A DNA stretch of 64,000 nt. Source: a virus. Within the stretch, counting starts at the first letter, position 1, and every line of letters starts with the position of its first letter. The stretch covers positions 2,665 through 66,664 of the IMG/VR virus record IMGVR_UViG_3300027973_000003, one strand, 5' to 3'. Positions 20,786-62,453 of this stretch are shown here, piece by piece. The position numbers were made by a program, and so were the translations under genes. Below the pieces are notes generated by a model. It was not told the DNA's origin, ran no database searches, and was given only the letters and a program-made list of their open reading frames with translations.

Positions 20786-21206
20786 CGTTTAAGCGGTATG
20801 TTTTTATTGGCTCGCTACTGTTTGCATCTACATTGCATGCCCACTTTACCGATTCTTCCGCTGTCAACCCCATGCGCATACAGACTTCTGCTGCCATGGC
20901 TCCAGACCCAATTGCCATAAATGATCTGATTCTTTCCCACTCCAGGTCGTCCCCACAGGAGAACAATCCATCTTTAGTTAGCTTGAGAAAGGAGCTGTCC
21001 GATTTTAGTTTTGGTTTTGTTTTGCTCTTCTTGCCCAGGTAATCTAAGACCTTCTCGGCATCCACGTAGTTACCAGCTACGCCCATCCAGCCACCATCTA
21101 TTGCAAATACTTTTTCTTCAAAGTACTTAATCCCCGAATCAGAATCCGTGAACTGACTATCTGCTACCAGTATCTTCTTATCCCAGTCACCGATGATTGT
21201 CGTCAT
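20775..21206 (-). CDS. Ntn-hydrolase (proteasome/HslV-like) peptidase
   Basis: N-terminal MTTII, ADSQ, GVAG and AIGSGA motifs. Confidence 0.7.
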   Translation of the reverse strand: MTTIIGDWDKKILVADSQFTDSDSGIKYFEEKVFAIDGGWMGVAGNYVDAEKVLDYLGKKSKTKPKLKSDSSFLKLTKDGLFSCGDDLEWERIRSFMAIGSGAMAAEVCMRMGLTAEESVKWACNVDANSSEPIKTYRLNDAV

Positions 21207-21613: not shown

Positions 21614-22015
21614 AGCAAAATGGTATCCCCTTGATATGTCAGATATTTTACAAAAAAATATACCCCCCTGGGGGTATTGAAATAAAAAAGATAGGGGGTG
21701 TGTTTCTATGAGCACCTTGAGCATGTGCTTGTGGATACTTTGATAGGGGGTGGGGGGTTAAGTACTTATTGCCGATTACATCGGGTCCACGACGTGCGGG
21801 CTTAAGAGGGCCAAGTCGACTAAGAAGCCAAGTTCTACCTAGTTGTAGCTATGTAACACAAATAGCACAAAGTTCTTAAACGAAGGTATCTAACGTGCAA
21901 ATTATTGAGTAGAGGGGACTTAGGATTCCTTTTTTTAATTTTGGGGTCATGGGGTTGTTACTGCAAACCTTTTCTAACATTGTTAGCCATAGCCCTATTT
22001 TTGTTTCCAAAGAAT

Positions 22016-22044
22016 TTGCTTTAGGGGTTATTTTGTGTTATAAT
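22016..22044 (+). promoter_or_regulatory. strong sigma70 early promoter
   Basis: TTGCTT-N17-TATAAT with TGn extended -10. Confidence 0.8.
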
Positions 22045-22121
22045 ATAACCATGCAACAGAGAAGTAAAGGTCAATGTTAGATACCTCTTAAATCTAACAA
22101 TGTTAGAAAAGGAATTAAATC

Positions 22122-22592
22122 ATGGAAAAGACTTTATTGGCTCAACGTTTAGAAAATGCTCGTAACGCAATAGTGGCAAACGCTGTAAATACTGGTGAAC
22201 TCATTGGCTCTTATGCTAGTGCAATGCAAGAATCATTTGACATGGTGCTAGAAAATGGTGAGGTTGTTAAGTGGTTTAATCTCAAGGGCAAGGCTAAAGT
22301 AGGTGTTAAGGCTGAATATGCTTTATTCGTTGATGCCCTAAAATCTGCTGACCTCGAGGGTAATAAGTATGTTTACTGGCAGAGAGTTAAGGAAGCAAGT
22401 GGTTATCAAACTGCAGGTAATACAGTAAAAGCAAGCCTGACTATTGATGCCCGTAACCTTGCTGACCTTAAAACGATTTTGGGTCGCATCTTGAATAACG
22501 AATCAGACGATGATGCTGAATTGTCAAATCAAGCAAAATCACACCTAACCGAAGCATTCTCAATTCTAGGTGGTGACATTACCAAAATCTAA
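22122..22592 (+). CDS. hypothetical first early protein
   Basis: 156 aa, AAGGA RBS, own promoter and terminator, flanked by palindromes. Confidence 0.75.
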   Translation: MEKTLLAQRLENARNAIVANAVNTGELIGSYASAMQESFDMVLENGEVVKWFNLKGKAKVGVKAEYALFVDALKSADLEGNKYVYWQRVKEASGYQTAGNTVKASLTIDARNLADLKTILGRILNNESDDDAELSNQAKSHLTEAFSILGGDITKI

Positions 22593-22610
22593 CAATGTTA
22601 GATTTGACCG

Positions 22611-22670
22611 AAGCCCTGATTCGTCAGGGCTTTTTTTGTGCCCATTCGGTTCGCACCGCGTGGGTTTTTT
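22611..22670 (+). terminator. tandem rho-independent terminators
   Basis: AAGCCCTGA-TTCG-TCAGGGCTT + T-run; second CCCA...TGGG hairpin + T6. Confidence 0.85.
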
Positions 22671-22729
22671 GTTTCCGCCTAGCAGAATAATGATAGTTCC
22701 AAGAAACGATAGGGCGAAACGAGGGAATT

Positions 22730-23160
22730 TCCTTTGTTAGAGGCAAAACTAACATTGTTAGAAACTGGGCTACAAAACTCTAACAATAGAAGCCTTTATA
22801 ATCAAGGACTTACAAGCATTGTTAGAAAGTGAAAAAGGACTCTAACAATATAAAAAGCCTTTAGAATCAAGGACTTACAAGCGTTTTTGGGGGTATTGTT
22901 AGAAAATGGAGAAAAACTAGGGAACGGAATCTGAAAAGAGCCTTTCACGCAGTGCAAACTTCCAGCACTAAAGCAAAAAGTTCTGCAAGCCTCTCTCTAT
23001 CTCTATTTTCTCTAACTTTATAACAATATATCTTTTTCTAACACCAAAGCCTTTTACTTATTGGATTTTACATTGTTAGAATTTCTTTTTATTTTTCTAA
23101 CAATACCCTGTTTTTTCTAACATTACCCCACTTTTTCTAACATTGCTCACTCAACCCAAA
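22730..23160. other. origin-like / nucleoprotein assembly region
   Basis: non-coding and AT-rich; TTTTTCTAACA half-sites at 20-bp spacing, a 16-bp inverted repeat, two WATCAANNNNTTR (IHF consensus) sites in a direct repeat. Confidence 0.55.
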
Positions 23161-23162
23161 AC

Positions 23163-23191
23163 TTGCAATAGGTCTAACAATGTGATACAAT
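23163..23191 (+). promoter_or_regulatory. sigma70 early promoter with palindrome-like operator in the spacer
   Basis: TTGCAA-N17-TACAAT with TGn; CTAACAATGTGAT between the hexamers. Confidence 0.75.
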
Positions 23192-23274
23192 ATAGGTATG
23201 AGTGGGAATATGTTTCTTATCGTTTACATTTATCAGCCGTTCCTAACAATGTTAGTTTTTACAAGGAGAAGTAT

Positions 23275-23373
23275 ATGAATCGTTTTATCGCCATCGTTGC
23301 CTTAGTAGTTGCACCACTTTATTTCGTGATGCATTTTGTATTGTTTCTATTAGCTAACACAGGAGTCAAATAA
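23275..23373 (+). CDS. 32 aa single-TM early peptide
   Basis: AAGGAG RBS; MNRFIAIVALVVAPLYFVMHFVLFLLA. Confidence 0.6.
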   Translation: MNRFIAIVALVVAPLYFVMHFVLFLLANTGVK

Positions 23374-23678
23374 TGGGCAAACTAAAACAGTCAATCATTG
23401 CAGAGCAAGAGAAGCGCCAGTTCGTATTCGACTTTGACGATGAGCCACAGACCATGCAACGCAAACTTACTACTACTCAAATGGTGGCAAGTAACTGGGT
23501 TCGTTACTACCATGTCAATAAACTTAAACCGAACACAGAGAAGTATAAGCAAGCGCAACATGCATACCTTTGTGGTATTGGCTTGATGCTAGGTGAGCAG
23601 ATGCCAACGCTATTGTCTTTGTGTTTATCGAGTGGCAGAGATATTGCAAGTGTAATCGAACGAACACAACCAAGATAA
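23373..23678 (+). CDS. hypothetical early protein
   Basis: 101 aa, AGGAG RBS. Confidence 0.65.
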   Translation: MGKLKQSIIAEQEKRQFVFDFDDEPQTMQRKLTTTQMVASNWVRYYHVNKLKPNTEKYKQAQHAYLCGIGLMLGEQMPTLLSLCLSSGRDIASVIERTQPR

Positions 23679-23699
23679 TTTTGACAGGAGAATCTAACA

Positions 23700-23906
23700 A
23701 TGTTATACGGAATTGATTGTGATTGCGGTATGGAGATTGATGCAAGGAGAGTGGCTATTGGCTACTTTGTATGCCTAGATTGTGGTGACAAGCAAGCTAA
23801 GGCTAAGAAGTTTGTAGTCCAAATACCTTACGGCAAAGGCGCATACCAGTATATTCACAACCCGATGGAAGATTTGAAATACACCAACCCAAAGAGGACA
23901 ACATGA
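23700..23906 (+). CDS. DksA/TraR-like C4 zinc-finger protein
   Basis: CDCGMEIDARR...CLDC. Confidence 0.55.
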   Translation: MLYGIDCDCGMEIDARRVAIGYFVCLDCGDKQAKAKKFVVQIPYGKGAYQYIHNPMEDLKYTNPKRTT

Positions 23907-23988
23907 ACTACTCAGAGTATTTAAAAGCTAAGTATGGCTCAGACAAGTTTGCTGATGTGTTACGCAAATGCATAGAGGAGAGGAAGAA

Positions 23989-24258
23989 ATGAAAGTAAAG
24001 GACAAAGACTATTACGAGTTATGCGACATGGTATTTAGTCTAGGTGCAGAGCAACGCAAGAAAGTTCTAACATTGTTAGACGACATGCAAGACCCAAAAG
24101 ACCGAGGAACAATCTTTGACCACGCATTGACCAAAGCCTATGAGTATGCAGAGAGTGGGCGAAACGACAAGCTAGCCAAAGAGGGCATTGCATGCGATGC
24201 ATACCGAGATGGATTTTTAGATGGAGTGGCTTACAGAATGGGTGGGTTCAATGCATAA
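23989..24258 (+). CDS. hypothetical early protein
   Basis: GAGGA RBS before MKVKDK; AYRDGFLDG motif. Confidence 0.6.
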   Translation: MKVKDKDYYELCDMVFSLGAEQRKKVLTLLDDMQDPKDRGTIFDHALTKAYEYAESGRNDKLAKEGIACDAYRDGFLDGVAYRMGGFNA

Positions 24259-24439
24259 GTATAAGTATTACAAAGGGCAACGCATTAGTGAGTTGCTTAC
24301 GCAGATAGATGAGTTGAGTAGGGCATTGGAAGATAACAATGATGCCTATAAAAACGAGACGCAAGCATTAAGAGCAATGGAAGCAATGGCTACGCTAGCA
24401 ATAGCAAAGGCAAAACTAACCGCACTACAAGGAGAATGA
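24251..24439 (+). CDS. hypothetical early protein
   Basis: 62 aa helical ORF coupled to neighbours. Confidence 0.5.
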   Translation: MHKYKYYKGQRISELLTQIDELSRALEDNNDAYKNETQALRAMEAMATLAIAKAKLTALQGE

Positions 24440-24440
24440 C

Positions 24441-24623
24441 ATGATTAAAAGTCTTGACGATATTTTGTTGGATGCAGAAGATGCGTTCTATGAGTTTGAT
24501 GATGAGCAAGGCAATATCTTTGACGATGATGACCGCATGCTATTCATCGAGGGATACAACCAAGGAGTTGAAGCATTTCGCAAGCAAGCCCTAACATTGT
24601 TATACAACATGAGGAGTGAGTGA
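24441..24623 (+). CDS. small acidic early protein (possible DNA mimic)
   Basis: AAGGAG RBS; D/E-rich DAEDAFYEFDDEQGNIFDDDD. Confidence 0.6.
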   Translation: MIKSLDDILLDAEDAFYEFDDEQGNIFDDDDRMLFIEGYNQGVEAFRKQALTLLYNMRSE

Positions 24624-25119
24624 GATGGGATACCGAAGCACGATAGCGTTTTGCTTATCAGTCAATGAGGAGAACAGGGAGAATGGGGATGGCACTCATT
24701 CTCTTTACTTTGATAGGGCTAAGTTCAAAGAGATGGTCGGGTTCATGAAACTAACTAAGTTCTATGAGATTGCGACAGACTCAGAGTATGACTTGCTTAG
24801 TAAGGAAAGCCCGCACCTTGGATGGGCAGAGGGCAAGATTGTTTTCTATGCAGAAGATTGGAAGTGGTATTCCGACTATCCATTGGTGGTGGCATTTAAC
24901 GATATGTGGAATTCGATGCAAGACATAGAGGGTATAAGCGGATACTTCTTGCGAGTAGGCGAGGGTGATGGCAACCAGTTGGATATAGACGAGGAAGAAT
25001 TCGGAGATGACCCTGACTACCAACACTTTAGCCCCCATGCATCTATGTATTTTAGTGGCGAAGGATTTTTAGGAGAGCAAGATACGAACGAAGAAGCGAA
25101 GGAACAGGTGACTACCTAA
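24616..25119 (+). CDS. acidic hypothetical early protein
   Basis: MGYRS...WKWY...FLRVGE motif, acidic tail. Confidence 0.65.
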   Translation: MSEMGYRSTIAFCLSVNEENRENGDGTHSLYFDRAKFKEMVGFMKLTKFYEIATDSEYDLLSKESPHLGWAEGKIVFYAEDWKWYSDYPLVVAFNDMWNSMQDIEGISGYFLRVGEGDGNQLDIDEEEFGDDPDYQHFSPHASMYFSGEGFLGEQDTNEEAKEQVTT

Positions 25120-25196
25120 CATTGTTAGGAATATTAGCGTATGTGTATGGTAGTTACAAATAGTAGCGTAGGCATATAACAATTAAGGAGTTATAA

Positions 25197-26132
25197 ATGT
25201 TTGGATATAGTAGAAACTCAGGCATCAGTTGGATGCGTGATTATGGGGATGCGTTCCATAAGTATCAGTCCACTACCGATATCAGAGGTAGGGTAAAAGA
25301 ACCTAAGCGCCCGCTTGGTCAGCGCAAGAGTGTCGATATGTATTCCATCAGACTCAAAGACGATGGCTCGATGGGTGTTGAGTGTGTGCTTTATCAGACC
25401 CCAGTTGTTACATTCTACCCAACAGGGCTAGTTGAATTGCGTAGTGATGGGTGGGCAAGTGCATCTACCGCTAGCTTTATCAATGAGGTTACAAACTACT
25501 CGGCTCGTATATTTAACGGCTCACTATGTGTAAGCGTAGCTGGTATAGAAAGTAGGATAGATGAAGGTGTCTTAAAGATAGAGGGTAATCGCATCCTTAA
25601 TCTAGTTGCGGATAAGACCCATTCAGTTATCAGAAGCGAAGCTAACAAAGTTAGAAAACAGTATGCCGAGTTCCTTAAGTATGGTTGTGCATTGGTGCGC
25701 CTCAAAGCTGAGGGCTTTCTTCTAGCAGAGTATGAAGAAACCTTTGGCAGAACTAGCAATGGTTCGTTTGTTGGTTTGCCCGAGGGTATAAGCAAATCAT
25801 ACAGGACTAACTTTATTGATGATGTGCATGCGTTCTTTGCATTGGCTAAGGAAAGCGGGGCGGATAAGCATGTTGCTCATTACAAAGCAGTCTTAGCTAT
25901 GGCTTGGGCATTCGGCTCTAATACTTATAGTGGAAGCTATACCGCAACAGGCACTCATATAAACGAGGCTAGCTTTAAGAGAGCATTCGATAACTTAGTG
26001 CTTGGCTATCACAGAGATGAGGTATTTGTGGAGAGGGTAAGAGAAGAAGGACAAGTAAAGAAAGACCCCTATGGCAAATACTATGAGAGTGGATGGGGAA
26101 GATTCCATTCTAACAATGTTAGTCAAACCTAA
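25197..26132 (+). CDS. hypothetical early protein
   Basis: 311 aa, AAGGAG RBS; LYQTPVVTFYPTG motif. Confidence 0.7.
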   Translation: MFGYSRNSGISWMRDYGDAFHKYQSTTDIRGRVKEPKRPLGQRKSVDMYSIRLKDDGSMGVECVLYQTPVVTFYPTGLVELRSDGWASASTASFINEVTNYSARIFNGSLCVSVAGIESRIDEGVLKIEGNRILNLVADKTHSVIRSEANKVRKQYAEFLKYGCALVRLKAEGFLLAEYEETFGRTSNGSFVGLPEGISKSYRTNFIDDVHAFFALAKESGADKHVAHYKAVLAMAWAFGSNTYSGSYTATGTHINEASFKRAFDNLVLGYHRDEVFVERVREEGQVKKDPYGKYYESGWGRFHSNNVSQT

Positions 26133-26136
26133 GAAC

Positions 26137-26165
26137 TTGCATTGGGATACTAATTGTGTTACAAT
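26137..26165 (+). promoter_or_regulatory. sigma70 early promoter
   Basis: TTGCAT-N17-TACAAT with TGn; downstream AGTGGGAAT shared with the 23163 promoter; palindromes on both sides. Confidence 0.75.
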
Positions 26166-26294
26166 ATATGTATAGTGGGAATTTATTACATCATAAGTGG
26201 TGAATTTCCTAACATTGTTAGGTGTAGTGTAGTAACAGTAGTATGTTTATAGGCAGCCGTAGTAATCATCAATCAATTAAAACGAGGAATCAAA

Positions 26295-27362
26295 ATGGCA
26301 GAAATCAATTTCGGTAAGACTGTATCAATCGCACAGGCTTGCAACATCATTCTTTCAACACCAATGAACCGCTACTTCTTAAGAGGTGAGCCAGGGATAG
26401 GCAAATCATCTATCCTTAAGACGCTATCCGCAAGCCTACCTGACCATGAGGTGTCATACATTGATGTGCCGAACATGGACTTGGGTGATATCGCTATGCC
26501 CGTTATCGACAGAGAAACAAAGACTACTGCCTATTACCCTAACAGTAGATTCAAGATTCATCTTGGCAAGCCAGTCATAACAATGTTAGATGAGTATACG
26601 AAAGGCGCAGACCCTATTAAGAACATGCTCCACCCGATGCTCGAGGTAGCTAACCCACGACTAGGTGATATCTCATTACTGCCTGAGTCTATTACTTTCT
26701 TGACAGGCAATCTATCTAGTGATGGTGTAGGCGACTCCCTGAAGGCGCATAGTATGAATCGTATTATTCCGCTACATGTAAGAAAGCCTGATGCAGATGA
26801 GTGGATTGGTTGGGCTATCAATAACGACATAGCACCTGAGGTTATCGCATGGGTTAAACAGTTCCCGCATGCAATGGCTAGCTATCTTGATGGCTCACAG
26901 TCAGACAATCCGTATATCTTTAATCCAAAGAAAGTGCAGTCAGCATTCGTATCGCCTCGTTCATTGGAGAGGGTATCTAACATTGTTAAGGTCAGGTCAC
27001 AGTTAGATGCCGATAGCTTGATATGTGCAATGAGTGGTGCGGTGGGCGAATCAGCTAGTAGGGATATGCAAGCATACATAGAGTTCTCAGACCAGCTTCC
27101 TACATGGGAGTCGGTAGTTGCAGACCCACGACATGCCAAAGTTCCCGAGGGTGCGGGCGCTTGTGCAATTATTGTATTCGGTGCTATCGCTAAGGTTACT
27201 AAGGACACCATCAGTCCGTTCATGCAATACCTTGAACGCTTTGAACCCGAGTGGCAAGCATGCTTTGCTATCAACATTGCGAAGTCCCCAAGCAAGCAGT
27301 CAGTTGCATTTAGTTCAGCTAAGTTTGCTGATTGGGTGCAGAAGAATGAAGATTTGTTATGA
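26295..27362 (+). CDS. MoxR-like AAA+ ATPase
   Basis: Walker A GEPGIGKS, Walker B MLDE, TGN sensor, SPRSLE. Confidence 0.85.
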   Translation: MAEINFGKTVSIAQACNIILSTPMNRYFLRGEPGIGKSSILKTLSASLPDHEVSYIDVPNMDLGDIAMPVIDRETKTTAYYPNSRFKIHLGKPVITMLDEYTKGADPIKNMLHPMLEVANPRLGDISLLPESITFLTGNLSSDGVGDSLKAHSMNRIIPLHVRKPDADEWIGWAINNDIAPEVIAWVKQFPHAMASYLDGSQSDNPYIFNPKKVQSAFVSPRSLERVSNIVKVRSQLDADSLICAMSGAVGESASRDMQAYIEFSDQLPTWESVVADPRHAKVPEGAGACAIIVFGAIAKVTKDTISPFMQYLERFEPEWQACFAINIAKSPSKQSVAFSSAKFADWVQKNEDLL

Positions 27363-27535
27363 CCGAGGAGAAAGTCAAACAACAGGGCAGACCACGCCTT
27401 GATAAGGATACTAAGGTTAGCAGAGAAAGGGTAAGGCAGATACAGAACCATGCCCTAGGTAAGCTACGCAAACTTATGTATGAGCGTGGGTATAAGTTCG
27501 AGGATTTTTTTGATGACAAGCAAAAGGGAAACTAA
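27359..27535 (+). CDS. 58 aa sigma70 region 4.2-like peptide (not in ORF track)
   Basis: MTEEKV...VSRERVRQIQNHALGKLRK; ATGA overlap with the AAA gene, stop 2 nt before the VWA gene start. Confidence 0.65.
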   Translation: MTEEKVKQQGRPRLDKDTKVSRERVRQIQNHALGKLRKLMYERGYKFEDFFDDKQKGN

Positions 27536-27537
27536 CA

Positions 27538-28761
27538 ATGTTAGACATAGTAGAAGATAAGCAAGCAGTAAAGGACAAGGAAGAACGCAGACTGAGCAAG
27601 ATTAAGATTGCCATTATGCGTAACCCTAAATTCGCTTTGTGGTCAGGCTTGATGACTGTTGGTAAAACTAGAGTAGTAGATAGTATCTTTGTTACCACAG
27701 CGAACACGAATGGTCGTGATGAGAATTACAGTCGTGATTTCATTAAACGCTTAGACGACAAAGAGTTGGCATTCGTGGTGTTACATGAAACATTGCACAA
27801 GGCTTATCGTCATCTGTTTATATGGCGCAAGTTGTGGGAAGAAAACGCACAGATTGCAAACATGGCATGCGACTATGTAATCAATCTTCAGCTAGTGGAC
27901 ATGGATAAAGACCAACAAATGCTAGCTATGCCTATGCATGAGGGTAAGGTAGTAGGGCTAGTCGATGAACGCTTTCGTGGCATGAACGCTAAGCAAGTAT
28001 TCGACATACTCAAAGAGGAAGAACCTGAGGGTGGGTATGGCGGTGGCGATGGTGGCTTTGATGAACACGATTGGGAAGGTGCGAAAGAACTAACCGAGGA
28101 GCAGAAGAAACAATTAGCCAAAGAAGTAGACCAAGCGATTCGCCAAGGACTTATTGCCCATGAGAAGTTAGTAGGCAAGGGCGGCGGTGGACTTAATCGT
28201 GAACTCGAGGACTTGATGCACCCTGAGGTGGATTGGAAAGAGGTGCTGAAAGAATTCGTTCGTTCTACTTGTAATGCCAAAGATGCTAGCAGTTGGCGCA
28301 GAGTCAATCGTCGCTTCCTCGGTAGTGATATGTATATGCCTACTCTAATAGGGGAGAAGGTAGGGCATCTCGTTATCGGTGTAGATACAAGTGGCTCAGT
28401 AGGGGGCAAGGAACTATCAGAGTTTCTTTCCGAGGTGCAAGGCATTGCTGAGGAAGTCCATCCCGAGAAAGTCGATTTGATTTATTGGGATGGGGCGGTG
28501 GCTGGTCATGAAGAATACGATGGCAACACAGTTTCTAACATTGTTAGTTCTACCCAACCAAAAGGCGGTGGTGGCACAGACCCGACTTGCGTGATGCATT
28601 ACTTGAAAGAGAACGCAATTAGACCTGAGGCAATCATCATGCTGACGGATGGATATATCGGTAACTGGGGAGACGAGTGGGATGCGCCAATTCTATGGAC
28701 TATTGTCAGAAATTCAAAGACTTATGCCCCAGTTGGTAAAACAATTCATATTAAGGAGTAA
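27538..28761 (+). CDS. metallopeptidase-like + VWA domain protein (DUF2201-like)
   Basis: HETLH zinc motif, NMACDYVIN, MIDAS DTSGS...GGGGTD...LTDG. Confidence 0.85.
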   Translation: MLDIVEDKQAVKDKEERRLSKIKIAIMRNPKFALWSGLMTVGKTRVVDSIFVTTANTNGRDENYSRDFIKRLDDKELAFVVLHETLHKAYRHLFIWRKLWEENAQIANMACDYVINLQLVDMDKDQQMLAMPMHEGKVVGLVDERFRGMNAKQVFDILKEEEPEGGYGGGDGGFDEHDWEGAKELTEEQKKQLAKEVDQAIRQGLIAHEKLVGKGGGGLNRELEDLMHPEVDWKEVLKEFVRSTCNAKDASSWRRVNRRFLGSDMYMPTLIGEKVGHLVIGVDTSGSVGGKELSEFLSEVQGIAEEVHPEKVDLIYWDGAVAGHEEYDGNTVSNIVSSTQPKGGGGTDPTCVMHYLKENAIRPEAIIMLTDGYIGNWGDEWDAPILWTIVRNSKTYAPVGKTIHIKE

Positions 28762-28765
28762 TCGT

Positions 28766-29008
28766 ATGAGCAAAGTAGTGGTAAGTCTTGGGTGGAATAA
28801 CGAGTATGTATTAGATGCAGACAAGGCTCTAACATTGTTAGATTTACTTAAAGATGCAGAGATATACAAGGAGCAATACCAACCGATAGAAAAGGGCGGG
28901 ACTAGCTACCATATATTTCAGCATGACAAGGATGTATGCAACATGCGTGTGCTTAGCAAGAACTTTTATAACCTAGCGAAGTTGGCTGGTAAACCTGAGG
29001 AGAAGTGA
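28766..29008 (+). CDS. hypothetical protein
   Basis: AAGGAG RBS before MSKVVV. Confidence 0.6.
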   Translation: MSKVVVSLGWNNEYVLDADKALTLLDLLKDAEIYKEQYQPIEKGGTSYHIFQHDKDVCNMRVLSKNFYNLAKLAGKPEEK

Positions 29009-29009
29009 T

Positions 29010-29876
29010 ATGAGTATTTCGTCATCTGCAGTATTAGTAGAACTAAACATTAGTGTATGGACTGCTAACAAGTTGGACAAAGGTGCAACCGATAGTGTGC
29101 TTGCAAGTAATTCGGCAAGTAAAGATAGCGCACAAGTGCGTAAGAACCTAATGGCTGGCACAGACAAGCGTAAGAAGATAGCTGACTACGCTGCTAGGGC
29201 TAGGCTCTACCACAATCAGACTACATTATCGTGGTCAGACAAAGGTGCGAGGCTTCTTCCTACTAGCTTGTTTATGGACTACAAGGCGAACATGAATGTG
29301 TATGAGAAGAATATGAACGTAATGATTGCCGACTTCTATACAAACTATGCAGACCTGATTGAGTTATCAAAGCATCACATGGGCGACTTGTTTAATCCTT
29401 ATGACTATCCTGATATTGATGAGTTGCGTAGCAAGTTTGGATTCCGATTGGTATTCTCTCCGTTGCCTGAGAGTGGGGACTTCCGCTTGGATATTCCGCA
29501 ACAAGATATGGTCGAGATGCAAGACAAGTATGAGTTGGCATTTAACGACAGGCTAGCAGATGCAATGCGTGAGCCATGGGAGAAGTTGCATAAAGCGTTG
29601 AGCCATCTATCTGACAAGCTGACTGACGAAGAGAATCAACAGGTGGATGGTAAGAATACTAAGCGTTATCACGATACCCTTATCACTAGCAATCAGGAGT
29701 TGTGCAGTCTATTGACCCACTTGAATGTAACCAAAGACCCATTGCTAGAACAAGCACGACGGGAGTTGGAACTAACAATGTTAGGTTTAGATATTGAAGA
29801 TATCAAGGATAGCGCAGACTGCCGTAAAGAAGTGAAGTCTAAGGTAGATGACATTCTTAACAAGTTTAATTGGTAA
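29010..29876 (+). CDS. DUF3150-like protein of MoxR/VWA modules
   Basis: VLVELNISVWTA.KLD...W.DKGARLLP...DYP...SKF; helical C-terminus. Confidence 0.6.
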   Translation: MSISSSAVLVELNISVWTANKLDKGATDSVLASNSASKDSAQVRKNLMAGTDKRKKIADYAARARLYHNQTTLSWSDKGARLLPTSLFMDYKANMNVYEKNMNVMIADFYTNYADLIELSKHHMGDLFNPYDYPDIDELRSKFGFRLVFSPLPESGDFRLDIPQQDMVEMQDKYELAFNDRLADAMREPWEKLHKALSHLSDKLTDEENQQVDGKNTKRYHDTLITSNQELCSLLTHLNVTKDPLLEQARRELELTMLGLDIEDIKDSADCRKEVKSKVDDILNKFNW

Positions 29877-29885
29877 GGGGGACTT

Positions 29886-29984
29886 ATGTTTACTGTGTTA
29901 GTAACAATACTTGCAATAACAGGGGCGGTGACTTGGGCTTTTGCCATATATGTTTTGGTTAATATTTATTTAGGAGAGAAGTAA
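29886..29984 (+). CDS. 32 aa single-TM peptide (not in ORF track)
   Basis: AGGGGG RBS; MFTVLVTILAITGAVTWAFAIYVLVNIYLGEK. Confidence 0.5.
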   Translation: MFTVLVTILAITGAVTWAFAIYVLVNIYLGEK

Positions 29985-30845
29985 ATGACATACGACAATG
30001 TAAAACTTAAATCAACAGACAGGGGCGATGGGGTCAAGATAGATTCAAAGATTGATTCCTTCCTGCAACCCTTAATTGAGAAGCTAGCACTCAAGTATCC
30101 ACAATGGACATTTGAAGAGGACAACACTAACTATAAGTGGGACAACATCAACGGCAAAAGCGTTAAGTCAGACCTTACTGCTACATGCTTTAAGGTAATG
30201 GATAAGCGTGAGGAGTTGGGTTCTATATATACGCAAACTTACCACTCTAGCCATGGGCAACAGTTTTGTGTAGATAACTTCCGAGTGCAACAGTTGCGTG
30301 AGCGTGGCAACGGCATGAAAACAATCCACGAAAAGAAAGCCCTCAAGCATATAGATAAATTCTTTGGTAAGAAGAACTTAGATGAGAAGTTAGCTGATGC
30401 AAAAAACCAAGCGCAACAATGTGTCAGTCGTGTATCTAATGACTTATCCAGTAAGTTTGATTGGGATTGGAATAGATTTACCGAGTTATCAAAACAATTT
30501 ATTGTGCAAAAACATTGGGAAGAATTTGTAGGTTATGTAGACCAAGCTATCCCTAATGCAAATTTTGATATAAATAAAATGCCCGAAAAGTTTGAGCGTA
30601 AGCTAGCTGGTCAGCAAGTTAAAGATGCATTTAATAAAGACGAACATTATCTTATATATGTGGATGGTCAAAACTATGCTATATTTCGCAAGAATGAGCC
30701 TACTCAAATTAAAGTAAGCGAAGAGTTGCCTGAGTTTATCCGTAGAAGTGTGGGCATGCTCAAGCTAGTAGATGACAACCAAATACTTAGCGGTATTGGG
30801 TGTCGTGTTAACGCAACCACTTATGTTGTGTTGCAACAAATCTAA
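29985..30845 (+). CDS. hypothetical protein
   Basis: 286 aa, AGGAG RBS; C-terminal LPE...VGMLKLV...GIGCRV. Confidence 0.7.
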   Translation: MTYDNVKLKSTDRGDGVKIDSKIDSFLQPLIEKLALKYPQWTFEEDNTNYKWDNINGKSVKSDLTATCFKVMDKREELGSIYTQTYHSSHGQQFCVDNFRVQQLRERGNGMKTIHEKKALKHIDKFFGKKNLDEKLADAKNQAQQCVSRVSNDLSSKFDWDWNRFTELSKQFIVQKHWEEFVGYVDQAIPNANFDINKMPEKFERKLAGQQVKDAFNKDEHYLIYVDGQNYAIFRKNEPTQIKVSEELPEFIRRSVGMLKLVDDNQILSGIGCRVNATTYVVLQQI

Positions 30846-30863
30846 CATTGTTAGGAGAGTGCT

Positions 30864-31070
30864 ATGTTATTTAAAAAGAAATTATCAGTAGTAGCAGAGT
30901 CAAAAAAAGAAAGGGTAATCCCTATGATACTTGATAAGAACTCAAGGTTTGTATACACAGGCGGTTCTGATGTATTAAAAACTTTTAAGAAGTATGGGTT
31001 CGTTCCGCCTAGTGAGTATCGTGATGACTATTTATTTAAACTTAACAGAGAAACCTCGAAAGGAGAATGA
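30864..31070 (+). CDS. hypothetical protein
   Basis: AGGAG RBS; DVLKTFKKYGFVPPSE. Confidence 0.6.
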   Translation: MLFKKKLSVVAESKKERVIPMILDKNSRFVYTGGSDVLKTFKKYGFVPPSEYRDDYLFKLNRETSKGE

Positions 31071-31279
31071 TGGATGAGGTAATAAGAAAAGGTAGGGGCA
31101 AAGCAAGTAAGCCAGCAATGGTTTACTTTCCCCTTAGAGTTAGCGTAGAAGTAGCACAGTTTTTTGAGGCTTATCCGAACAAAAGCAAAAAGATTCGGGA
31201 AGTCTTAGAGCAATTTATAAACAAAGAAAAAGGACTTAAAGATGAGAACAATAAGCAAGAAATCACAGAAGTTAAATGA
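31067..31279 (+). CDS. putative ribbon-helix-helix DNA-binding protein
   Basis: KGRGK arm, alternating strand VYFPLRV followed by two helices. Confidence 0.5.
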   Translation: MMDEVIRKGRGKASKPAMVYFPLRVSVEVAQFFEAYPNKSKKIREVLEQFINKEKGLKDENNKQEITEVK

Positions 31280-31670
31280 CTATCTAGCAGAGAACCCTGA
31301 TGTAAAGGCTAGCATGGTAGCCAAGTTGTTTAAAGCAACAGTGCAGTCTATATATCAGCGTAGGGCTAAACTAAAGTTGGCAGCGGGTAAAAGTGCAAAG
31401 CGTGGTCGCCCTCGCCAGATACCTTCAACGCTTGTGCCTAACGCAGTAATGTCAATGGCAGTATATGCGGATGATAAGGTGAATAGCCCGAGCCACTATA
31501 AAGTAGGTGGTATTGAGACTATCGACTTTATCGAAGCTAAAGGTTTGGACTACCATTTAGGTAATGTAGTCAAGTATATTAGTCGTGCTGAGTTCAAAGA
31601 TACTAAGTTGGAAAACCTAAAGAAAGCACAATGGTATCTCAATCGTGTGGTATCTAACTTAGAGAAATAA
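31242..31670 (+). CDS. DUF3310 (SaV-like) protein with N-terminal HTH-like segment
   Basis: VNSPSHY..GGIETIDFI...GNVVKYISRA...LKKAQWYL; N-terminal ASMVAKLFKATVQSIY. Confidence 0.75.
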   Translation: MRTISKKSQKLNDYLAENPDVKASMVAKLFKATVQSIYQRRAKLKLAAGKSAKRGRPRQIPSTLVPNAVMSMAVYADDKVNSPSHYKVGGIETIDFIEAKGLDYHLGNVVKYISRAEFKDTKLENLKKAQWYLNRVVSNLEK

Positions 31671-31674
31671 TATT

Positions 31675-31811
31675 AGGGGGGTAAGTTTACTCGCTACTAC
31701 TAGTAGCCTTGTAGATGCAAATGTGGTGGCTCTCGGCTAGTTCCCCCCAAGACATTTCGACTAGCCGAATCCTTATAGCCCGACGAGGGGCGGGTAATCT
31801 ACATACCCCCT
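31675..31811 (+). ncRNA. candidate structured RNA (multi-stem, pseudoknot)
   Basis: five complementary stems plus AAAUGU/ACAUUU pseudoknot pairing in a 190-bp intergenic gap; strand assumed from the operon. Confidence 0.55.
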
Positions 31812-31826
31812 CATTTTCTTCTTGCC

Positions 31827-31854
31827 TTGACAAAGTCAAACCCTGTGTTATCAT
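31827..31854 (+). promoter_or_regulatory. middle promoter with TTGAC-AAA-GTCAA palindrome over the -35; leaderless mRNA
   Basis: TTGACA-N16-TATCAT with TGn; ATG 6 nt after the -10. Confidence 0.7.
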
Positions 31855-31860
31855 AAGGGC

Positions 31861-32175
31861 ATGGCACAAACACCCGAAAAAAAAGTAAAAGACAAAGTTG
31901 TAAAGATACTAAAGAAGCATGGTATCTATTACTTCTTCCCCGCAACGCATGGCTTTGGGCGCTCAGGTGTGCCTGATGTTGTGTGTTGCTTTAACTCATT
32001 ATTCATGGGCATAGAATGCAAGGCTGGAACTAATAAGCCTACTGCACTACAAGAAAAAGAAATGGCAGACATCCGTAGTGCGGGTGGAGTGACCTTTGTT
32101 ATCAACGAAACGAATCTAACAATGTTAGAAAGTTGGATTACGGATGAAAATTTTGACTTTGATGGGAGATGCTAA
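31861..32175 (+). CDS. VRR-NUC domain nuclease / Holliday junction resolvase-like
   Basis: TPEKKVK...GVPDVV...IECKAG..KPTALQ. Confidence 0.85.
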   Translation: MAQTPEKKVKDKVVKILKKHGIYYFFPATHGFGRSGVPDVVCCFNSLFMGIECKAGTNKPTALQEKEMADIRSAGGVTFVINETNLTMLESWITDENFDFDGRC

Positions 32176-32540
32176 TGAATCAAGGAGTTCAGATTTTATT
32201 AGAGCGTATGCGTAGCAACCCTGATGAATTTATACCGACTGTGCATGGGTATTACCCTAAAAAATGGCAAGACATTTTACTTGCCATTCAAATGCGAGCC
32301 GAAGGGGGTAAGGACTACCAAGACCAACTACCTTTCCTCAGCAATGAGGAAGTCAAAGCCCTATGGGATGGTATGCAACAACTACAGGGCGAGCTGTTTA
32401 CTAAGAAGGTTATGAATATTCTGCTACAAGATGCAACGGAACTATCATCTTCTTTCACACAACTCTCGGACGATACGATTTATATTAAAAACGATGGTGC
32501 AGTATCAGGAACAATTACTGGAAAGTTGCGTTACCCATGA
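32169..32540 (+). CDS. hypothetical protein
   Basis: MNQGVQILLERMRSNPDEF; coupled to neighbours. Confidence 0.6.
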   Translation: MLMNQGVQILLERMRSNPDEFIPTVHGYYPKKWQDILLAIQMRAEGGKDYQDQLPFLSNEEVKALWDGMQQLQGELFTKKVMNILLQDATELSSSFTQLSDDTIYIKNDGAVSGTITGKLRYP

Positions 32541-34360
32541 AAATATACTGCATTGATTTTGAGACCTATTACTCTCAGGCCTACTCATTAACTAAATTAA
32601 CCACCGAAGAATACATCCGTGGAGAGGAGTTTGAGGTGATTGGTGTTGCCGTACAAGAACAAGGTGGGGACCCGCAGTGGTTTAGTGGTACTCAAGAAGC
32701 CACAAAGAAATGGCTAGAACAGTTTGAGTTTGAGAACAATCTAGTATGTGCCCACAATGCCATGTTTGATATGGCTATCCTTAGTTTTGTATTTGATATA
32801 AGACCTAAGTCCATTGCGGATACTCTATCAATGGCAAGAGCAATATACGGAACTGAAGTTGGCGGAAGCCTTAAAGCATTAGCTGAATACCATGCGATTG
32901 GTGTTAAAGGCACAGAAGTATTACAGGCATTAGGCAAGCACAGGATTGACTTTACCCCCGAAGAATTGCGTTCCTATGGCGAATACTGCAAAAATGATAC
33001 TGCGCTAGCCATGCAGTTACTAGAGATATTGGGCGAAAGTTTTCCTGTGGTTGAGTTTAAGTTGATTGACTTGACCATCCGTATGTTTACTGAACCTACT
33101 CTTCAGTTGTACAAGCCCTTGTTAGAAACGCACCTCAAAGCGGTACAAGATAAGAAAAGCGCCCTTCTTGATAATGGATTGCTAACCAAAGAGGCACTAC
33201 TGAGTAACGATAAGTTTGCTGATTTGCTAAAGACATGTGGGATAGAACCACCTACTAAAATAAGTCCAGCTACAGGAAAAGAAACCTGGGCATTTGCTAA
33301 AACGGATGAGGGCTTTAAAGCATTGCTTGAACACGAGAATCAAACTGTGCAGTTATTAGCAACAGCTCGTCTTGGCATTAAGTCTACACTAGAAGAAACA
33401 AGGACTGAACGCTTTATTGGTATTGCGGATCGGGGTTTACTACCTATACCACTACGCTACTATGCGGCTCATACAGGGCGGTGGGGCGGTGATGACAAAG
33501 TTAATTTACAAAACCTACCAAGAAGTTCACCACTTAAAAGTGCAATTCGTGCCCCTAGTGGTTACAAGATAATTGATAGCGACTCATCGCAGATTGAGGC
33601 TAGAACATTAGCGTGGTTGGCTGAACAGAATGATTTGGTTGATGCATTTGAAAGGGGTGAAGATGTTTACAAGATCATGGCATCGTCTATATATGGCAAG
33701 AGCGAAGAAGAAATTACGAAGGATGAAAGGTTCGTCGGGAAGACTACAATTCTCGGATGTGGCTACGGCATGGGCAGTAAGAAATTCCAAACCCAACTCA
33801 AGACTTTCAATGTGGAAATTGAGGAGGGGGAATCCAATCGTATTATCCAAGTCTACCGCGAGACTTATGACTGGATTCCTGCTCTTTGGAGAAAAGCGGG
33901 GTTAGCTTTAGATGCCATCATCAACAATCAAAGCATGTCGTTAGGTCGGGTTGGAGTGCTAGAGGTTGAAGGTATAAAAGGCATTCGTCTGCCAAATGGG
34001 TTGTATATGAAGTACCCAAACCTACGCAAGATAACTAATGAACAAGGTAAGACCGAATATGTATACGACACCAAAAAAGGTAAGGCAACTATACCTAACA
34101 GAATATATGGTGGGAAGGTTATTGAGAACGTATGTCAGGCTTTAGCTCGCATTATTATTGGCGAGCAGATGCTACAAGTAGCAAAGAAATACAAGGTTGT
34201 AATGACTGTGCATGATGCGATTGCTTGCGTAGTACCTGAGGCAGAAGCAAAGACAGCTCAAGAATACGTCGAGTTGTGTATGAAGATGCGACCAAAGTGG
34301 GCATTAGAGTTACCACTTAGTTGTGAGTCGGGCATTGGCAATAGTTATGGTGAGTGCTAG
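32537..34360 (+). CDS. polA: DNA polymerase family A with 3'-5' exonuclease
   Basis: IDFETY, AHNAMFD, HTGRW, NLQNLP, DSSQIEAR, KTTILGCGYG, VHDA. Confidence 0.95.
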   Translation: MKIYCIDFETYYSQAYSLTKLTTEEYIRGEEFEVIGVAVQEQGGDPQWFSGTQEATKKWLEQFEFENNLVCAHNAMFDMAILSFVFDIRPKSIADTLSMARAIYGTEVGGSLKALAEYHAIGVKGTEVLQALGKHRIDFTPEELRSYGEYCKNDTALAMQLLEILGESFPVVEFKLIDLTIRMFTEPTLQLYKPLLETHLKAVQDKKSALLDNGLLTKEALLSNDKFADLLKTCGIEPPTKISPATGKETWAFAKTDEGFKALLEHENQTVQLLATARLGIKSTLEETRTERFIGIADRGLLPIPLRYYAAHTGRWGGDDKVNLQNLPRSSPLKSAIRAPSGYKIIDSDSSQIEARTLAWLAEQNDLVDAFERGEDVYKIMASSIYGKSEEEITKDERFVGKTTILGCGYGMGSKKFQTQLKTFNVEIEEGESNRIIQVYRETYDWIPALWRKAGLALDAIINNQSMSLGRVGVLEVEGIKGIRLPNGLYMKYPNLRKITNEQGKTEYVYDTKKGKATIPNRIYGGKVIENVCQALARIIIGEQMLQVAKKYKVVMTVHDAIACVVPEAEAKTAQEYVELCMKMRPKWALELPLSCESGIGNSYGEC

Positions 34361-38442: not shown

Positions 38443-38469
38443 GGAGGTGTGGTAACAAAGGAGCTAAAC

Positions 38470-62443: not shown

Positions 62444-62453
62444 GTGATTCTCC

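Follow-up and report, generated by a model that had tools for sequence, protein, structure and literature searches.

A restriction-word-free zone co-extensive with a palindrome array in the early region of a lake phage

Organisation of the locus

The stretch of DNA analysed (the window, 64,000 nucleotides) covers most of a phage genome of ~66.5-66.6 kb from lake metagenomes. Early and replication genes occupy a rightward block at 22.1-43.1 kb; the leftward late block begins at 21.7 kb with the genes for terminase and portal, continues across the ends of the circular assembly and closes with the gene for a 2005-aa virion protein, a gene-block polarity that is N4-like. The structural module is podovirus-type and related to HTVC023P-type phages, and the terminase, with HTVC023P-type pelagiphages and lake phages as its nearest named relatives, is of the Terminase_6C type, which cannot discriminate fixed ends from headful packaging. 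The features around the junction of the two blocks are the following.

21725..21973, no strand: non-coding gap from which the late block runs leftward and the early block rightward
21813..32577, no strand: restriction-word-free zone, ~10.7 kb with early genes, from word counts and codon choice
21974..32128, no strand: palindrome array from a motif scan, 23 copies (15 exact) of CTAACAWTGTTAG
22016..22044, plus strand: predicted early promoter P1, TTGCTT, then TGtTATAAT, extended -10; palindromes 21974 and 22094
22122..22592, plus strand: first early gene, its 156-aa product helical and of no known family; stop codon within palindrome 22589
22610..22633, plus strand: terminator-like hairpin and T run after the first gene
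22741..23142, no strand: non-coding region rich in palindromes and half-sites
23163..23191, plus strand: predicted early promoter P2, TTGCAA-17-TACAAT, extended -10
24441..25119, plus strand: two very acidic small proteins (60 aa, pI 4.1; 167 aa, pI 4.2)
26137..26165, plus strand: predicted early promoter P3, TTGCAT-17-TACAAT, extended -10; palindromes 26110 and 26209
26295..27362, plus strand: MoxR-like AAA ATPase (phrog_1297)
27359..27535, plus strand: 58-aa protein consisting of a sigma-70 region 4 helix-turn-helix
27538..28761, plus strand: DUF2201 metallopeptidase-like plus VWA-like protein; start codon within palindrome 27532
29010..29876, plus strand: conserved 288-aa core protein; homologue in Synechococcus phage MinM2 annotated DUF3150
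31067..31279, plus strand: 70-aa basic protein, ribbon-helix-helix-like sequence pattern
31792..31808, plus strand: terminator-like hairpin, then T-rich run, marking the end of the P1-P3 transcription domain
31827..31854, plus strand: predicted second-class promoter TTGACAAAGTCAAAC...TATCAT, with a twin at 38415
31861..32540, plus strand: last two zone genes, an Hjc/VRR-NUC-like nuclease and a 123-aa protein
32537..34360, plus strand: DNA polymerase I gene; avoided words return 41 nt in (GGCC 32578, GTAC 32651)

By their sequence, P1, P2 and P3 appear to be sigma-70-type promoters pointing inward from the left edge, with P3 homologous to P2, and the second-class promoter probably drives the last two zone genes together with the DNA polymerase gene. 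The P2 spacer contains the palindrome variant 23174, a further palindrome follows at 23243, and the region upstream holds two 34-nt repeats, 65 nt apart, at 22790-22888 and three 20-nt direct repeats TTTTTCTAACAWT at 23092-23151. Among the zone genes that of the MoxR-like ATPase is best conserved in relatives. A structural search with the first early gene product gave no match, the two acidic proteins might be DNA mimics, and none of the zone proteins scanned belongs to a known anti-restriction family.

Loss of restriction words from the early zone

The depletion is total and word-specific. GATC, GGCC, GTAC, CCGG, GGNCC and GGNNCC are absent from the zone, and ACGT, CGCG, CCWGG (1 copy) and GCNGC (4 against 46 expected at the density of the rest) are almost missing. 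The gaps in GATC, GGCC and GTAC reported in the initial annotation are confirmed, with sites that agree with its coordinates once site length is allowed for: GATC is interrupted between 21304 and 33428 (71 sites in the window), GGCC between 21809 and 32578 (51 in the window) and GTAC between 21762 and 32651 (226 in the window), and the approximately 39 GATC that it gave for 1-21.3 kb compare with a computed 41 in 1-21307. The last outside sites, GTAC 21762, ACGT 21792, GGCC 21809 and ACGT 21893, lie in the non-coding gap. Equally, the avoidance is selective as had been claimed, the interval holding 22 TCGA, 33 AGCT, 54 CATG and 78 TGCA. A count of 4-mers against Markov expectation, run as a check, revealed a depletion stronger than first described, with observed/expected values of 0/33 for GATC, 0/19.5 for GGCC, 0/31 for GTAC, 0/8.4 for CCGG, 1/12.7 for CGCG and 3/20.5 for ACGT, the six lowest ratios among all 136 strand-symmetrised 4-mers. 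Combined, these six words occur ~10 times per kb outside the zone and 0-1 times per kb inside, and at the density of the remaining sequence a zero count has a Poisson probability of 2e-20 (GTAC) and 8e-7 (GATC). Asymmetric words are also lost, namely CCAGA (1 observed, 28 expected), ACSGT (0 and 21) and GCAGC (3 and 33).

The sites have been removed by context-dependent synonymous codon choice, which switches only where a site would arise. Tyrosine codons following a codon that ends in G are TAC/TAT 0/29, versus 47/48 at other zone positions; aspartate codons preceding C are GAT/GAC 0/20, versus 129/71 elsewhere in the zone. Outside the zone the words are near expectation, with 235 GTAC (256 expected) and 194 ACGT (203 expected), so that the rest of the genome would need protection of another kind. 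The DNA methyltransferase families PF01555, PF00145 and PF02086 gave no match when all six frames of the genome were searched.

Recurrence in relatives, polarity and edges of the zone

Relatives were collected from IMG/VR with the DUF2201/VWA-like gene as anchor, which yielded 36 related loci of at least 14 kb each, and a site-free zone, meaning that the sites of a palindromic 4-mer leave a significant gap (P<1e-3) across the anchor gene, was found in 19 of them; the remaining 17 had no significant zone, nor had the cultured relative Pag-Yong1. Palindromic 4-mers gave 43 anchor-spanning gaps versus 2 elsewhere (527 tests), and non-palindromic 4-mers 12 versus 46 (4320 tests). The avoided words differ even among close relatives: L003, whose anchor protein is 92% identical, keeps 18 GATC in its zone and has 0 of 38 expected ACGT and 1 of 53 GTAC, L022 is without GGCC, GGNCC and GGNNCC and retains GTAC, L018 is without GCGC and GTAC, and in L076 and L065 nine to ten words are missing. 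All 16 alignable GATC sites in the zone of L003, the closest relative, are one-base variants in the window. Such turnover by point changes in conserved sequence indicates ongoing selection rather than inheritance.

This turnover bears directly on whether the zone might instead be a module exchanged among phages of many hosts, which sums the avoidance of past hosts while the rest of the genome reflects the present host alone. Module exchange at the left edge does occur, as in L063, L064, L073 and L075 a late-block protein (20775-21206) is 81-84% identical and zone proteins are only 40-48% identical, and word frequencies do differ between zone and rest (TCGA 22 observed against 7 expected from the rest, CATG 54 against 30). 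However, the core genes of the zone diverge in step with the neighbouring polymerase gene across relatives, no recombination joint is seen at the right edge, which keeps its place at the polymerase start, and past avoidance would decay without present selection, which makes a mosaic origin very improbable.

The avoidance is polar and breaks off abruptly at the left edge. For five avoided words the observed/expected ratio is 0.03 in the zone and then 0.61, 0.75, 0.65, 0.73 and finally 0.93 in the successive ~11-kb segments after it, the last of which adjoins the left edge from upstream; of the 10 loci having both flanks, 9 show weaker depletion upstream than downstream. The right edge falls within ~220 nt of the polymerase gene start in nine relatives and in the window itself. 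Here it lies inside an operon, ~700 nt past the terminator-like site closing the early-promoter domain, which means that the zone is not simply the early transcription unit.

Alternatively, entry might not be polar at all: the whole genome would enter, and a co-injected or very early shield would cover everything but the early domain, which stays accessible for host transcription and is alone under selection. Fixed ends would not be required, and the 2005-aa virion protein offers itself as an example of such a shield, being related to giant 'polyvalent/DarB-like' proteins; it matches a profile of giant phage proteins that carries a DarB-like antirestriction label (phrog_10089, E 2e-53), and the protein at the homologous position in Pag-Yong1 is annotated as 'large polyvalent protein'. 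Yet the profile match covers the C-terminal part only, a Pfam scan of the 2005-aa protein found no domain, neither methyltransferase nor helicase, and a shield predicts neither the polar gradient nor the flank asymmetry and leaves the sharp right edge within an operon unexplained. We consider this alternative distinctly unlikely.

A genome end is predicted near 21.8-21.97 kb, in the 21725..21973 gap or just to its right; headful packaging, if true, would undermine a leading segment. An end overlap of 127 nt, as circular assembly typically leaves, is present in the contig and in two complete relatives. Both zone edges are spanned by Logan contigs from two runs (assembled contigs only), and the even contig depth over the zone shows that it is not a collapsed repeat.

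The palindrome array and known systems

The 13-base CTAACAWTGTTAG is present in 15 exact copies, 20 with at most one mismatch and 23 with at most two, and no copy occurs in the other ~56 kb; shuffled sequence gives 0.21 matches at up to one mismatch. The starts are as follows.

Palindromes 1-12: 21974, 22094, 22589, 22749, 22813, 23067, 23174, 23243, 23694, 24067, 24591, 25116
Palindromes 13-23: 25642, 26110, 26209, 26577, 26977, 27532, 28535, 28829, 29772, 30842, 32116

The agreement of array and zone edges to within ~1 kb, noted previously, is closer still, as the array starts 161 nt to the right of the left edge and its last palindrome, within the nuclease gene, ends 450 nt short of the right edge. 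Palindromes flank all three early promoters and overlap start codons at 23700 and 27538 and stop codons at 22592, 25119 and 30845. From this placement they most likely are operators of a symmetric DNA-binding protein and not protection devices. The 70-aa basic protein is a tentative candidate for the binder: its match to a ribbon-helix-helix profile is weak (E 0.079), a fold search gave no match, and its putative DNA-reading strand differs among phages with an identical palindrome.

The many sites at gene junctions and on start codons would also suit intercistronic hairpins that act in early mRNA processing or translational control, a role that would leave the reading of the zone unchanged. 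Longer palindromes of relatives would fold stably (20 nt in L067; 22-24 nt with spacers of 2-3 nt in L078), and Pag-Yong1 has one in nearly every early intergenic gap. Against this, central A and T are used equally (11 versus 12) with both orientations present, one site lies upstream of P1, half-sites upstream of P2 occur as direct repeats, and a hairpin of 5 bp closed by a 3-nt loop would by estimate be only marginally stable, so that a function in RNA seems quite improbable.

On the other hand, the palindromes might be parts of the entry apparatus of a leading segment, as sites at which a DNA-binding protein, from the host or co-injected, would load or anchor and by ratcheting delimit the DNA transferred first. 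The shared edges, a right edge that is no transcription-unit boundary, a last palindrome that in most relatives keeps its position in the 3' end of the nuclease gene and the single 10-11-kb cluster holding 17 of 18 and 11 of 11 sites in the complete relatives speak for it. In contrast, the sites gather, like those of a regulator, at promoters and where genes meet, their spacing is irregular (median 451 nt, range 64 to 1274 nt), the Pag-Yong1 palindrome is spread genome-wide, and distant relatives have the zone with palindromes of other length and arm order, so that zone and array, though marking one domain, are separable. A literature search for similar arrays found none, and to our knowledge a sequence-specific entry ratchet has no precedent; we regard it as unlikely.

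We give somewhat better than even credence to a combined reading, in which the zone is the leading early segment entering first and unprotected and the palindromes are operators of a phage-encoded symmetric protein. The zone at 21.8-32.6 kb would then be the promoter-proximal part of the rightward block and the leading segment of linear virion DNA, naked in the cell and transcribed by host RNA polymerase from three strong sigma-70-type promoters, and the rest of the genome would be safe from host restriction enzymes only once its products act. Selection would thus have cleared the naked segment of all words that the host's many restriction systems target, while GTAC, ACGT and like words could remain at expected frequency elsewhere. 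The palindrome-binding protein would switch the early domain off by promoter bracketing and roadblocks at gene junctions, as with mycobacteriophage 'stoperators'. The T5/T7-style leading segment proposed in the initial annotation is retained as the best explanation of recurrence, lineage-specific words, one-base GATC variants and polarity; the role in entry or protection that it gave the palindromes found no support, as promoter bracketing and overlap with starts and stops fit regulator sites.

The principle of a site-free leading segment is already known. Conjugative plasmids also have a leading region; their DNA enters single-stranded, and the present system is a phage. The first-step-transfer segment of T5 is likewise ~10 kb without host-enzyme sites and expressed by host RNA polymerase, the rest having sites shielded by an early function. 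It lies, however, in a ~10-kb terminal repeat of 10,219 bp (PMC8594841), in contrast to the flat depth here, and one documented case compares with about ten words purged in this phage, which furthermore has a podovirus-type structural module and an array co-extensive with the zone. In T7-like Marinomonas phages (Murciavirus), as the accessible part of PMC12455610 describes, citing the EcoRI case of T5, Type I restriction depends on whether the motif lies in the part injected first, and copies elsewhere do no harm. In T7, entry is driven by transcription. Common to both systems are host promoters that point inward from the leading end and a terminator-like site close to where the early domain stops, whereas avoidance here concerns mainly Type II-like palindromes of 4-6 bp, the zone extends 700 nt beyond the terminator-like site, and a search for a single-subunit RNA polymerase (PF00940) gave no match, a weak negative with control genomes that lacked the family.

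Coliphage N4 (Schitoviridae) combines staged, transcription-dependent injection with hairpin early promoters. Likenesses include early and replication genes running rightward from the left end, late genes leftward with a giant virion protein gene at the far late end, an AAA and VWA gene pair common to N4-like Vibrio phages (~31% identity) and small inverted repeats in the leading 10-16% of the genome. In the available text of PMC4496689, N4 has three promoters, each with a GC-rich heptamer flanked by inverted repeats and read by a virion RNA polymerase, as opposed to 23 AT-rich, fully symmetric sites in both central-base orientations and good sigma-70 promoters here. The 2005-aa protein, which has no Pfam domain, showed no sequence similarity to N4 vRNAP structures.

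Stoperators lie across both arms of a temperate genome, whereas the sites here are confined to the early zone of a phage in which no tyrosine integrase family was matched. The parts of PMC9283540 available describe, for mycobacteriophage L5/Cluster A, many 13-bp repressor sites across transcribed DNA that terminate elongation; these are asymmetric and bound by a monomeric immunity repressor, and the present sites, equally 13 bp and numerous through transcribed DNA, are symmetric.

Localised loss of restriction-target words

The genome, a single contig of 66,664 bp of which bases 2665-66664 form the window, has ends that are identical over 127 nt; this identity, also present in two complete relatives, is the assembler overlap of a circular assembly and not a mapped terminal repeat. 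The phage occurs in freshwater and lake metagenomes, with all sampled words found in 2 of the 20 runs listed, which may be the source; RNA runs were not among these 20, and the phage collection contained no near-identical record. Rfam and tRNA scans of the window gave no match. Two divergent gene blocks make up the genome.

Main features of the two blocks
from 21724, leftward: late block, wrapping round the assembly and including tail proteins
17807-19366, leftward: terminase large subunit
15299-17797, leftward: portal
11451-12359, leftward: major head protein
43159-49176, minus strand: 2005-aa protein, with an ejection-protein-like gene at the distal end of the late block
22122-43070, rightward: early and replication block, opening with about 20 mostly unknown genes
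27359-27535, rightward: sigma-70 region 4 protein of 58 aa (25 bits, cut-off 24.1)
32537-34360, rightward: DNA polymerase I
34354-34965, rightward: sigma-70 region 4 protein of 203 aa (E 3e-16)
between the latter and the helicase, rightward: PD-(D/E)XK nuclease
36892-38418, rightward: helicase
40055-42907, rightward: primase

The terminase is nearest to those of the lake phage DSL-LC04, HTVC023P-type pelagiphages and the Planktothrix phage Pag-Yong1 (46-56% identity). DSL-LC04 and HTVC023P were discarded as model relatives, as they have only the structural module in common and differ in early layout.

An initial annotation had read by eye three gaps in the occurrence of GATC, GGCC and GTAC in the first part of the rightward block, and on computed count all three are exact. 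The restriction-word-free zone extends from 21813 to 32577. Compared with the expectation of a maximal-order Markov model, these palindromic sites are indeed absent from the zone and not present at normal frequency, and the selectivity proposed at the same time holds, with CATG and TGCA, and also CTAG, TATA and ATAT, at expectation in this interval. GATC, GGCC, GTAC, CCGG, CGCG and ACGT have the six lowest observed-to-expected ratios among the 136 strand-symmetrised 4-mers, the next lowest ratio being 0.60.

Palindromic words, observed / expected, inside the zone (Markov model) and outside it
GATC: 0 / 33 inside; 73 / 130 outside
GGCC: 0 / 19.5 inside; 53 / 121 outside
GTAC: 0 / 31 inside; 235 / 256 outside
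CCGG: 0 / 8.4 inside; 0 / 73 over the entire 66.6-kb genome
CGCG: 1 / 12.7 inside; 29 / 85 outside
ACGT: 3 / 20.5 inside; 194 / 203 outside

Outside the zone GTAC and ACGT are thus not avoided, while GATC, GGCC and CGCG are avoided in part. CCGG is missing from the whole genome, as is CCSGG, and so one restriction specificity is avoided throughout, beyond the leader. Among longer words the zone contains no GGNCC, no GGNNCC and a single CCWGG, and GCNGC occurs 4 times as compared with 46 at the density of the rest. Equally, asymmetric words are purged from the zone, with CCAGA/TCTGG at 1 versus 28 expected from the rest, ACSGT at 0 versus 21 and GCAGC/GCTGC at 3 versus 33, which hints at putative Type IIS, IIG or III specificities in the host. 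The edges are sharp, as the combined density of the six words passes from 10-14 per kb to 0-1 and back to 5-9 per kb.

Selection on DNA words accounts for the zone depletion, and neither composition nor codon bias does. Codons are missing precisely in the contexts in which they would complete an avoided word, and Val before C is encoded by GTA 17 times versus 26 times by other codons in the adjoining replication module.

Codon choice within the zone, in the word-forming context and for the same residue in other contexts
Tyr after a G-ending codon: TAC 0 / TAT 29; elsewhere 47 / 48
Asp before C: GAT 0 / GAC 20; elsewhere 129 / 71
Ile after G: ATC 0 / other 33; elsewhere 48 / 84
Thr before T: ACG 0 / other 25; elsewhere 19 / 95
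Val before C: GTA 0 / other 27

Palindrome array and early transcription

The zone is co-extensive with an array of the palindrome CTAACAWTGTTAG, present in 15 exact copies, 20 copies at up to one mismatch and 23 at up to two mismatches, all of them within 21974-32128 and none in the other approximately 56 kb; dinucleotide shuffles yield 0.21 matches when one mismatch is allowed. At the centre, 11 copies have A and 12 have T. Three strong sigma-70-type early promoters, each with an extended -10 element, have palindromes on both sides.

Early promoters and their palindromes
22016-22044: P1, palindromes at 21974 and 22094
23163-23191: P2, palindromes at 23067, 23174 (in the spacer) and 23243
26137-26165: P3, palindromes at 26110 and 26209

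Of the other copies, some overlap a start codon (23700, 27538) or a stop codon (22592, 25119, 30845), while the remaining copies are intragenic, in the two frames that avoid the TAA of the motif. A 400-nt non-coding stretch (22741-23142) carries more half-sites, among them a 20-nt direct repeat in three copies. By their siting at promoters and gene junctions, strand symmetry, half-site repeats and co-variation across lineages, the palindromes are compatible with operators; the binder, a putative symmetric DNA-binding protein of the phage, would silence the early domain. A role of the palindromes in DNA entry itself, as suggested in the initial annotation, is a much less probable reading.

Two known systems with arrayed sites can be compared. 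The likeness to stoperators (PMC9283540) consists in the operator-based silencing of a domain by a palindrome binder that is proposed here; the present sites are palindromic and do not have the form of asymmetric, orientation-biased 13-bp sites with a named repressor. In phage N4, three GC-rich oriented promoters, with a heptamer with inverted repeats, are read by the virion RNA polymerase (PMC4496689). Hairpin promoters of the N4 type were rejected, since the array consists of 23 symmetric AT-rich sites and no similarity to the virion RNA polymerase was found.

As to the palindrome binder, a weak candidate is a protein of 70 aa (31067-31279) that displays a ribbon-helix-helix-like pattern with a weak profile match to 2q2k (E 0.079) and a predicted model of an extended N-terminus and two helices; it has no Pfam match and no clear match with Foldseek or VIA-align, and its putative DNA-reading strand differs among phages with the same palindrome. 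Correlation of zone open reading frames with palindrome type across 80 loci singled out no binder. For the 58-aa sigma region 4 protein, -35-like elements are the likelier target, for example the inverted TTGAC repeats of a second class of promoters. The promoters of this class, at 31827-31854 and, as a twin, at 38415-38442, have in common TTGACAAWGTCAAAC, in which the inverted TTGAC repeats lie, and then TGTG and a -10-like element; they may be middle-gene promoters with a regulator site.

A T7-type single-subunit RNA polymerase was sought with PF00940 in a six-frame search that gave no match and in which no positive control matched either; PHROG and Pfam scans of the large open reading frames contained no RNA polymerase family. 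In place of a phage RNA polymerase there are the two sigma-70 region 4 proteins, and the phage probably times its genes by modifying the host polymerase. A temperate immunity region was discarded as a reading, with no tyrosine integrase match obtained.

The end of the zone does not coincide with the end of a transcription unit. A terminator-like hairpin (31792-31808) and the first of the second-class promoters lie about 700 nt before the right edge, and the promoter and terminator layout predicts a common transcript for the polymerase gene and the two zone genes before it. A zone defined purely by transcription does not fit this arrangement. The right edge resembles a DNA boundary more than an RNA boundary, and entry might physically stop here by analogy to T5.

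Conservation among relatives and polarity of the genome

A search of IMG/VR with the VWA-like protein of the zone (27538-28761) as an anchor recovered 278 encoding stretches, and 80 loci from this set were analysed further. The palindrome array is retained in relatives whose anchor protein is at least about 55-60% identical. Other lineages possess replacement palindromes, namely ATAACA.TGTTAT, GTAACA.TGTTAC, CTAAC-WWW-GTTAG and TAACA-WW-TGTTA, and furthermore TGTTTAAACA, TGTTAGTGAGCTCACTAACA or TTGTTAGGGA-N2-3-TCCCTAACAA. Clustering is equally preserved in complete relatives, where one cluster of 10-11 kb contains 17 of the 18 sites in G001 and all 11 in G003.

A significant gap (P<1e-3) in at least one palindromic 4-mer spans the anchor in 19 of the 36 loci of at least 14 kb. 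In 527 tests of palindromic 4-mers, 43 gaps span the anchor versus 2 elsewhere, as compared with 12 versus 46 in 4320 tests of non-palindromic 4-mers. A second analysis, of the 14 loci (including the window) with an array and outside sequence, found a palindromic word depleted inside in 10 and outside in none. The avoided words differ among lineages.

Avoided words in related loci, inside / outside counts
L003: ACGT 0/38, GTAC 1/53, GGCC 0/13, but GATC 18/13
L018 and kin: GTAC 0/18, GCGC 0/11
L022: GGCC, GGNCC and GGNNCC 0/11-13, but GTAC 50/22
L026: ACGT 0/28
L058: AGCT absent
L063: GCGC and ACGT absent
L076 and L065: nine to ten words absent over 10-13 kb

The four lineages that close this list have the zone without the CTAACA array, and zone and motif are therefore separable. 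All 16 alignable GATC sites in the L003 zone are represented by one-base variants in the window (GACC 8, GATT 5, others), in sequence otherwise 76-84% identical. The right edge lies within about 220 nt of the polymerase start in nine relatives and in the window itself, and in most relatives the last palindrome is located in the 3' end of the nuclease gene preceding the polymerase.

The cultured relative Pag-Yong1 (OL906435.1) shares the layout but lacks a zone; its entire genome is devoid of GTAC and GANTC, and a SAM lyase is annotated near the start of the early operon. A genome with 68.9% G+C and without GANTC and GTAC is unexpected for the labelled cyanobacterial source. In this phage (L089 and L090) GTTCAGNCTGAAC occurs 33 times with one mismatch allowed, almost always in intergenic gaps and most densely in the early operon.

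In two distant relatives, L078 and L067, the TGTTAG/CTAACA half-site is everted in longer palindromes, of 22-24 nt with a variable centre of 2-3 nt in L078 and of 20 nt in L067, where a DNA-reading module may have been kept and used in different arrangements. At the left edge, an HslV-family peptidase-like gene close to the start of the late block (20775-21206, minus strand) is 81-88% identical in some relatives with zone genes of only 40-48% identity, which indicates module exchange at this edge.

The genome was linearised at the left edge and the ratio for GATC, GGCC, GTAC, ACGT and CGCG pooled by segment.

Pooled observed/expected ratio from the left edge
zone: 0.03
next 10.5 kb, replication genes: 0.61
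third segment, about 11 kb: 0.75
fourth segment, about 11 kb: 0.65
fifth segment, about 11.5 kb: 0.73
last 12 kb, on the side of terminase and portal and next to the left edge once the map is closed: 0.93

The contrast of the zone with its flanking segments thus places the largest discontinuity of the genome at the left edge, as a linear molecule entering from the left edge would give. In the ten related loci with two flanks, several of which are close kin and not independent, depletion is weaker upstream than downstream in nine (ratios of 0.6-1.45 versus 0.43-0.90), the exception being L028 with 0.60 upstream and 0.63 downstream. We predict the genome end between about 21.81 and 21.97 kb.

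The contig ends of the relatives were discarded as physical ends, as the 'DTR' of G000, G002 and G004 is the 127-nt assembler overlap; in G002 the palindrome array is split between the two contig ends. Contigs of four runs were compared with the window; in two of these runs Logan contigs extend across both zone edges, and their depth, a coarse test as it is given per contig, is 18.8 and 13.8 in the zone versus 14.4 beside it in the first run and 19.1 versus 18.0 in the second. This depth, flat across the zone, argues against a collapsed T5-like long terminal repeat, which would be seen as doubled depth.

Proposed leading segment and candidate protection of the incoming DNA

We infer that the zone is the leading, first-exposed segment of the phage DNA, on the basis of its location where the rightward block begins, inward-pointing host-type promoters, the selectivity of avoidance, fast turnover and polarity. 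In common with a T5-type leader the zone is devoid of restriction sites that are present in the remaining genome, and in common with T7 strong host promoters, P1-P3 as recognised at the sequence level, point inward at the leading end. Localised avoidance is useful only if the rest of the DNA is not exposed to active restriction enzymes, and staged entry is the known way to keep later DNA from restriction. As GTAC and ACGT occur at expected frequency in the rest, the family must have protection against many Type II enzymes at once.

The principle is already in print for T5 and T7-like phages. The first-transferred DNA of T5 lacks an EcoRI site and gaining one renders the phage sensitive (as cited in PMC12455610), and in T7-like Marinomonas phages restriction by a Type I system depends solely on motifs located in the first-injected region (PMC12455610). 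The protecting function of T5 is still called elusive (PMC8594841). The literature found on such palindrome arrays or localised depletion in phages consisted of PMC12455610 and plasmid papers only, with no earlier account of several words depleted in one region together with a co-extensive palindrome array. In the present case about ten words are involved, and the signature is unusually clean, with conservation across a large uncultured family and readable polarity.

Self-methylation is not indicated by PF01555, PF00145 or PF02086, none of which matched in the genome, and the scan of zone proteins gave no known anti-restriction family. Candidates for the protecting function can be named by position or properties only. 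They are the first gene (22122-22592), with its own promoter and terminator and a helical predicted model (pLDDT 76) whose product has no match at E <= 0.001 in PDB or BFVD; two very acidic proteins at 24441-25119 (pI 4.1-4.2); and the conserved AAA ATPase, sigma-4-like, VWA-metallopeptidase and DUF3150-like genes. Profiles of three conserved zone proteins versus PDB sequences gave nothing meaningful, and two zone proteins fell into unnamed viral clusters only in the ESM Atlas.

A more far-reaching reading, which we consider improbable, is that this widespread uncultured freshwater family would practise two-step DNA delivery, with a leader of about 10 kb physically delimited by an array of lineage-specific palindromes as loading or stop sites for a DNA-binding protein and with a leader-encoded shield. 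It is equally doubtful that such a shield would act site-independently on many Type II enzymes, perhaps through the AAA / VWA-metallopeptidase / DUF3150 module; if true, the shield would be the function for which T5 lacks identification.

Returning to the zone as leading segment, a signature readable from sequence alone might serve to predict the leading end, injection polarity and early domain in uncultured phages, and equally reports the restriction repertoire each lineage faces. The family provides a small conserved gene set in which to seek the protecting function, with the different avoided words as natural controls, and the co-extensive palindrome array provides a regulatory or structural element with clear co-variation across lineages.

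Some genes outside the zone merit mention. For the 2005-aa protein neither a Pfam domain nor a PDB sequence match was found; the match of its C-terminal half is to the C-termini of giant phage proteins (2400-4600 aa), among them a family with the label DarB-like antirestriction, and Pag-Yong1 has a 'large polyvalent protein' at the equivalent position. The gene at 38449-38877 (plus strand) has sub-threshold weak matches to Mu Gam-like and Pam3 gp33-like families (E about 0.005) and its product is possibly a DNA-end-binding protein of the replication module. A radical SAM protein (61013-62443) is encoded in the late block region 60144-63998 (minus strand) between unknown proteins on both sides, one of which has a weak pentapeptide-repeat match.
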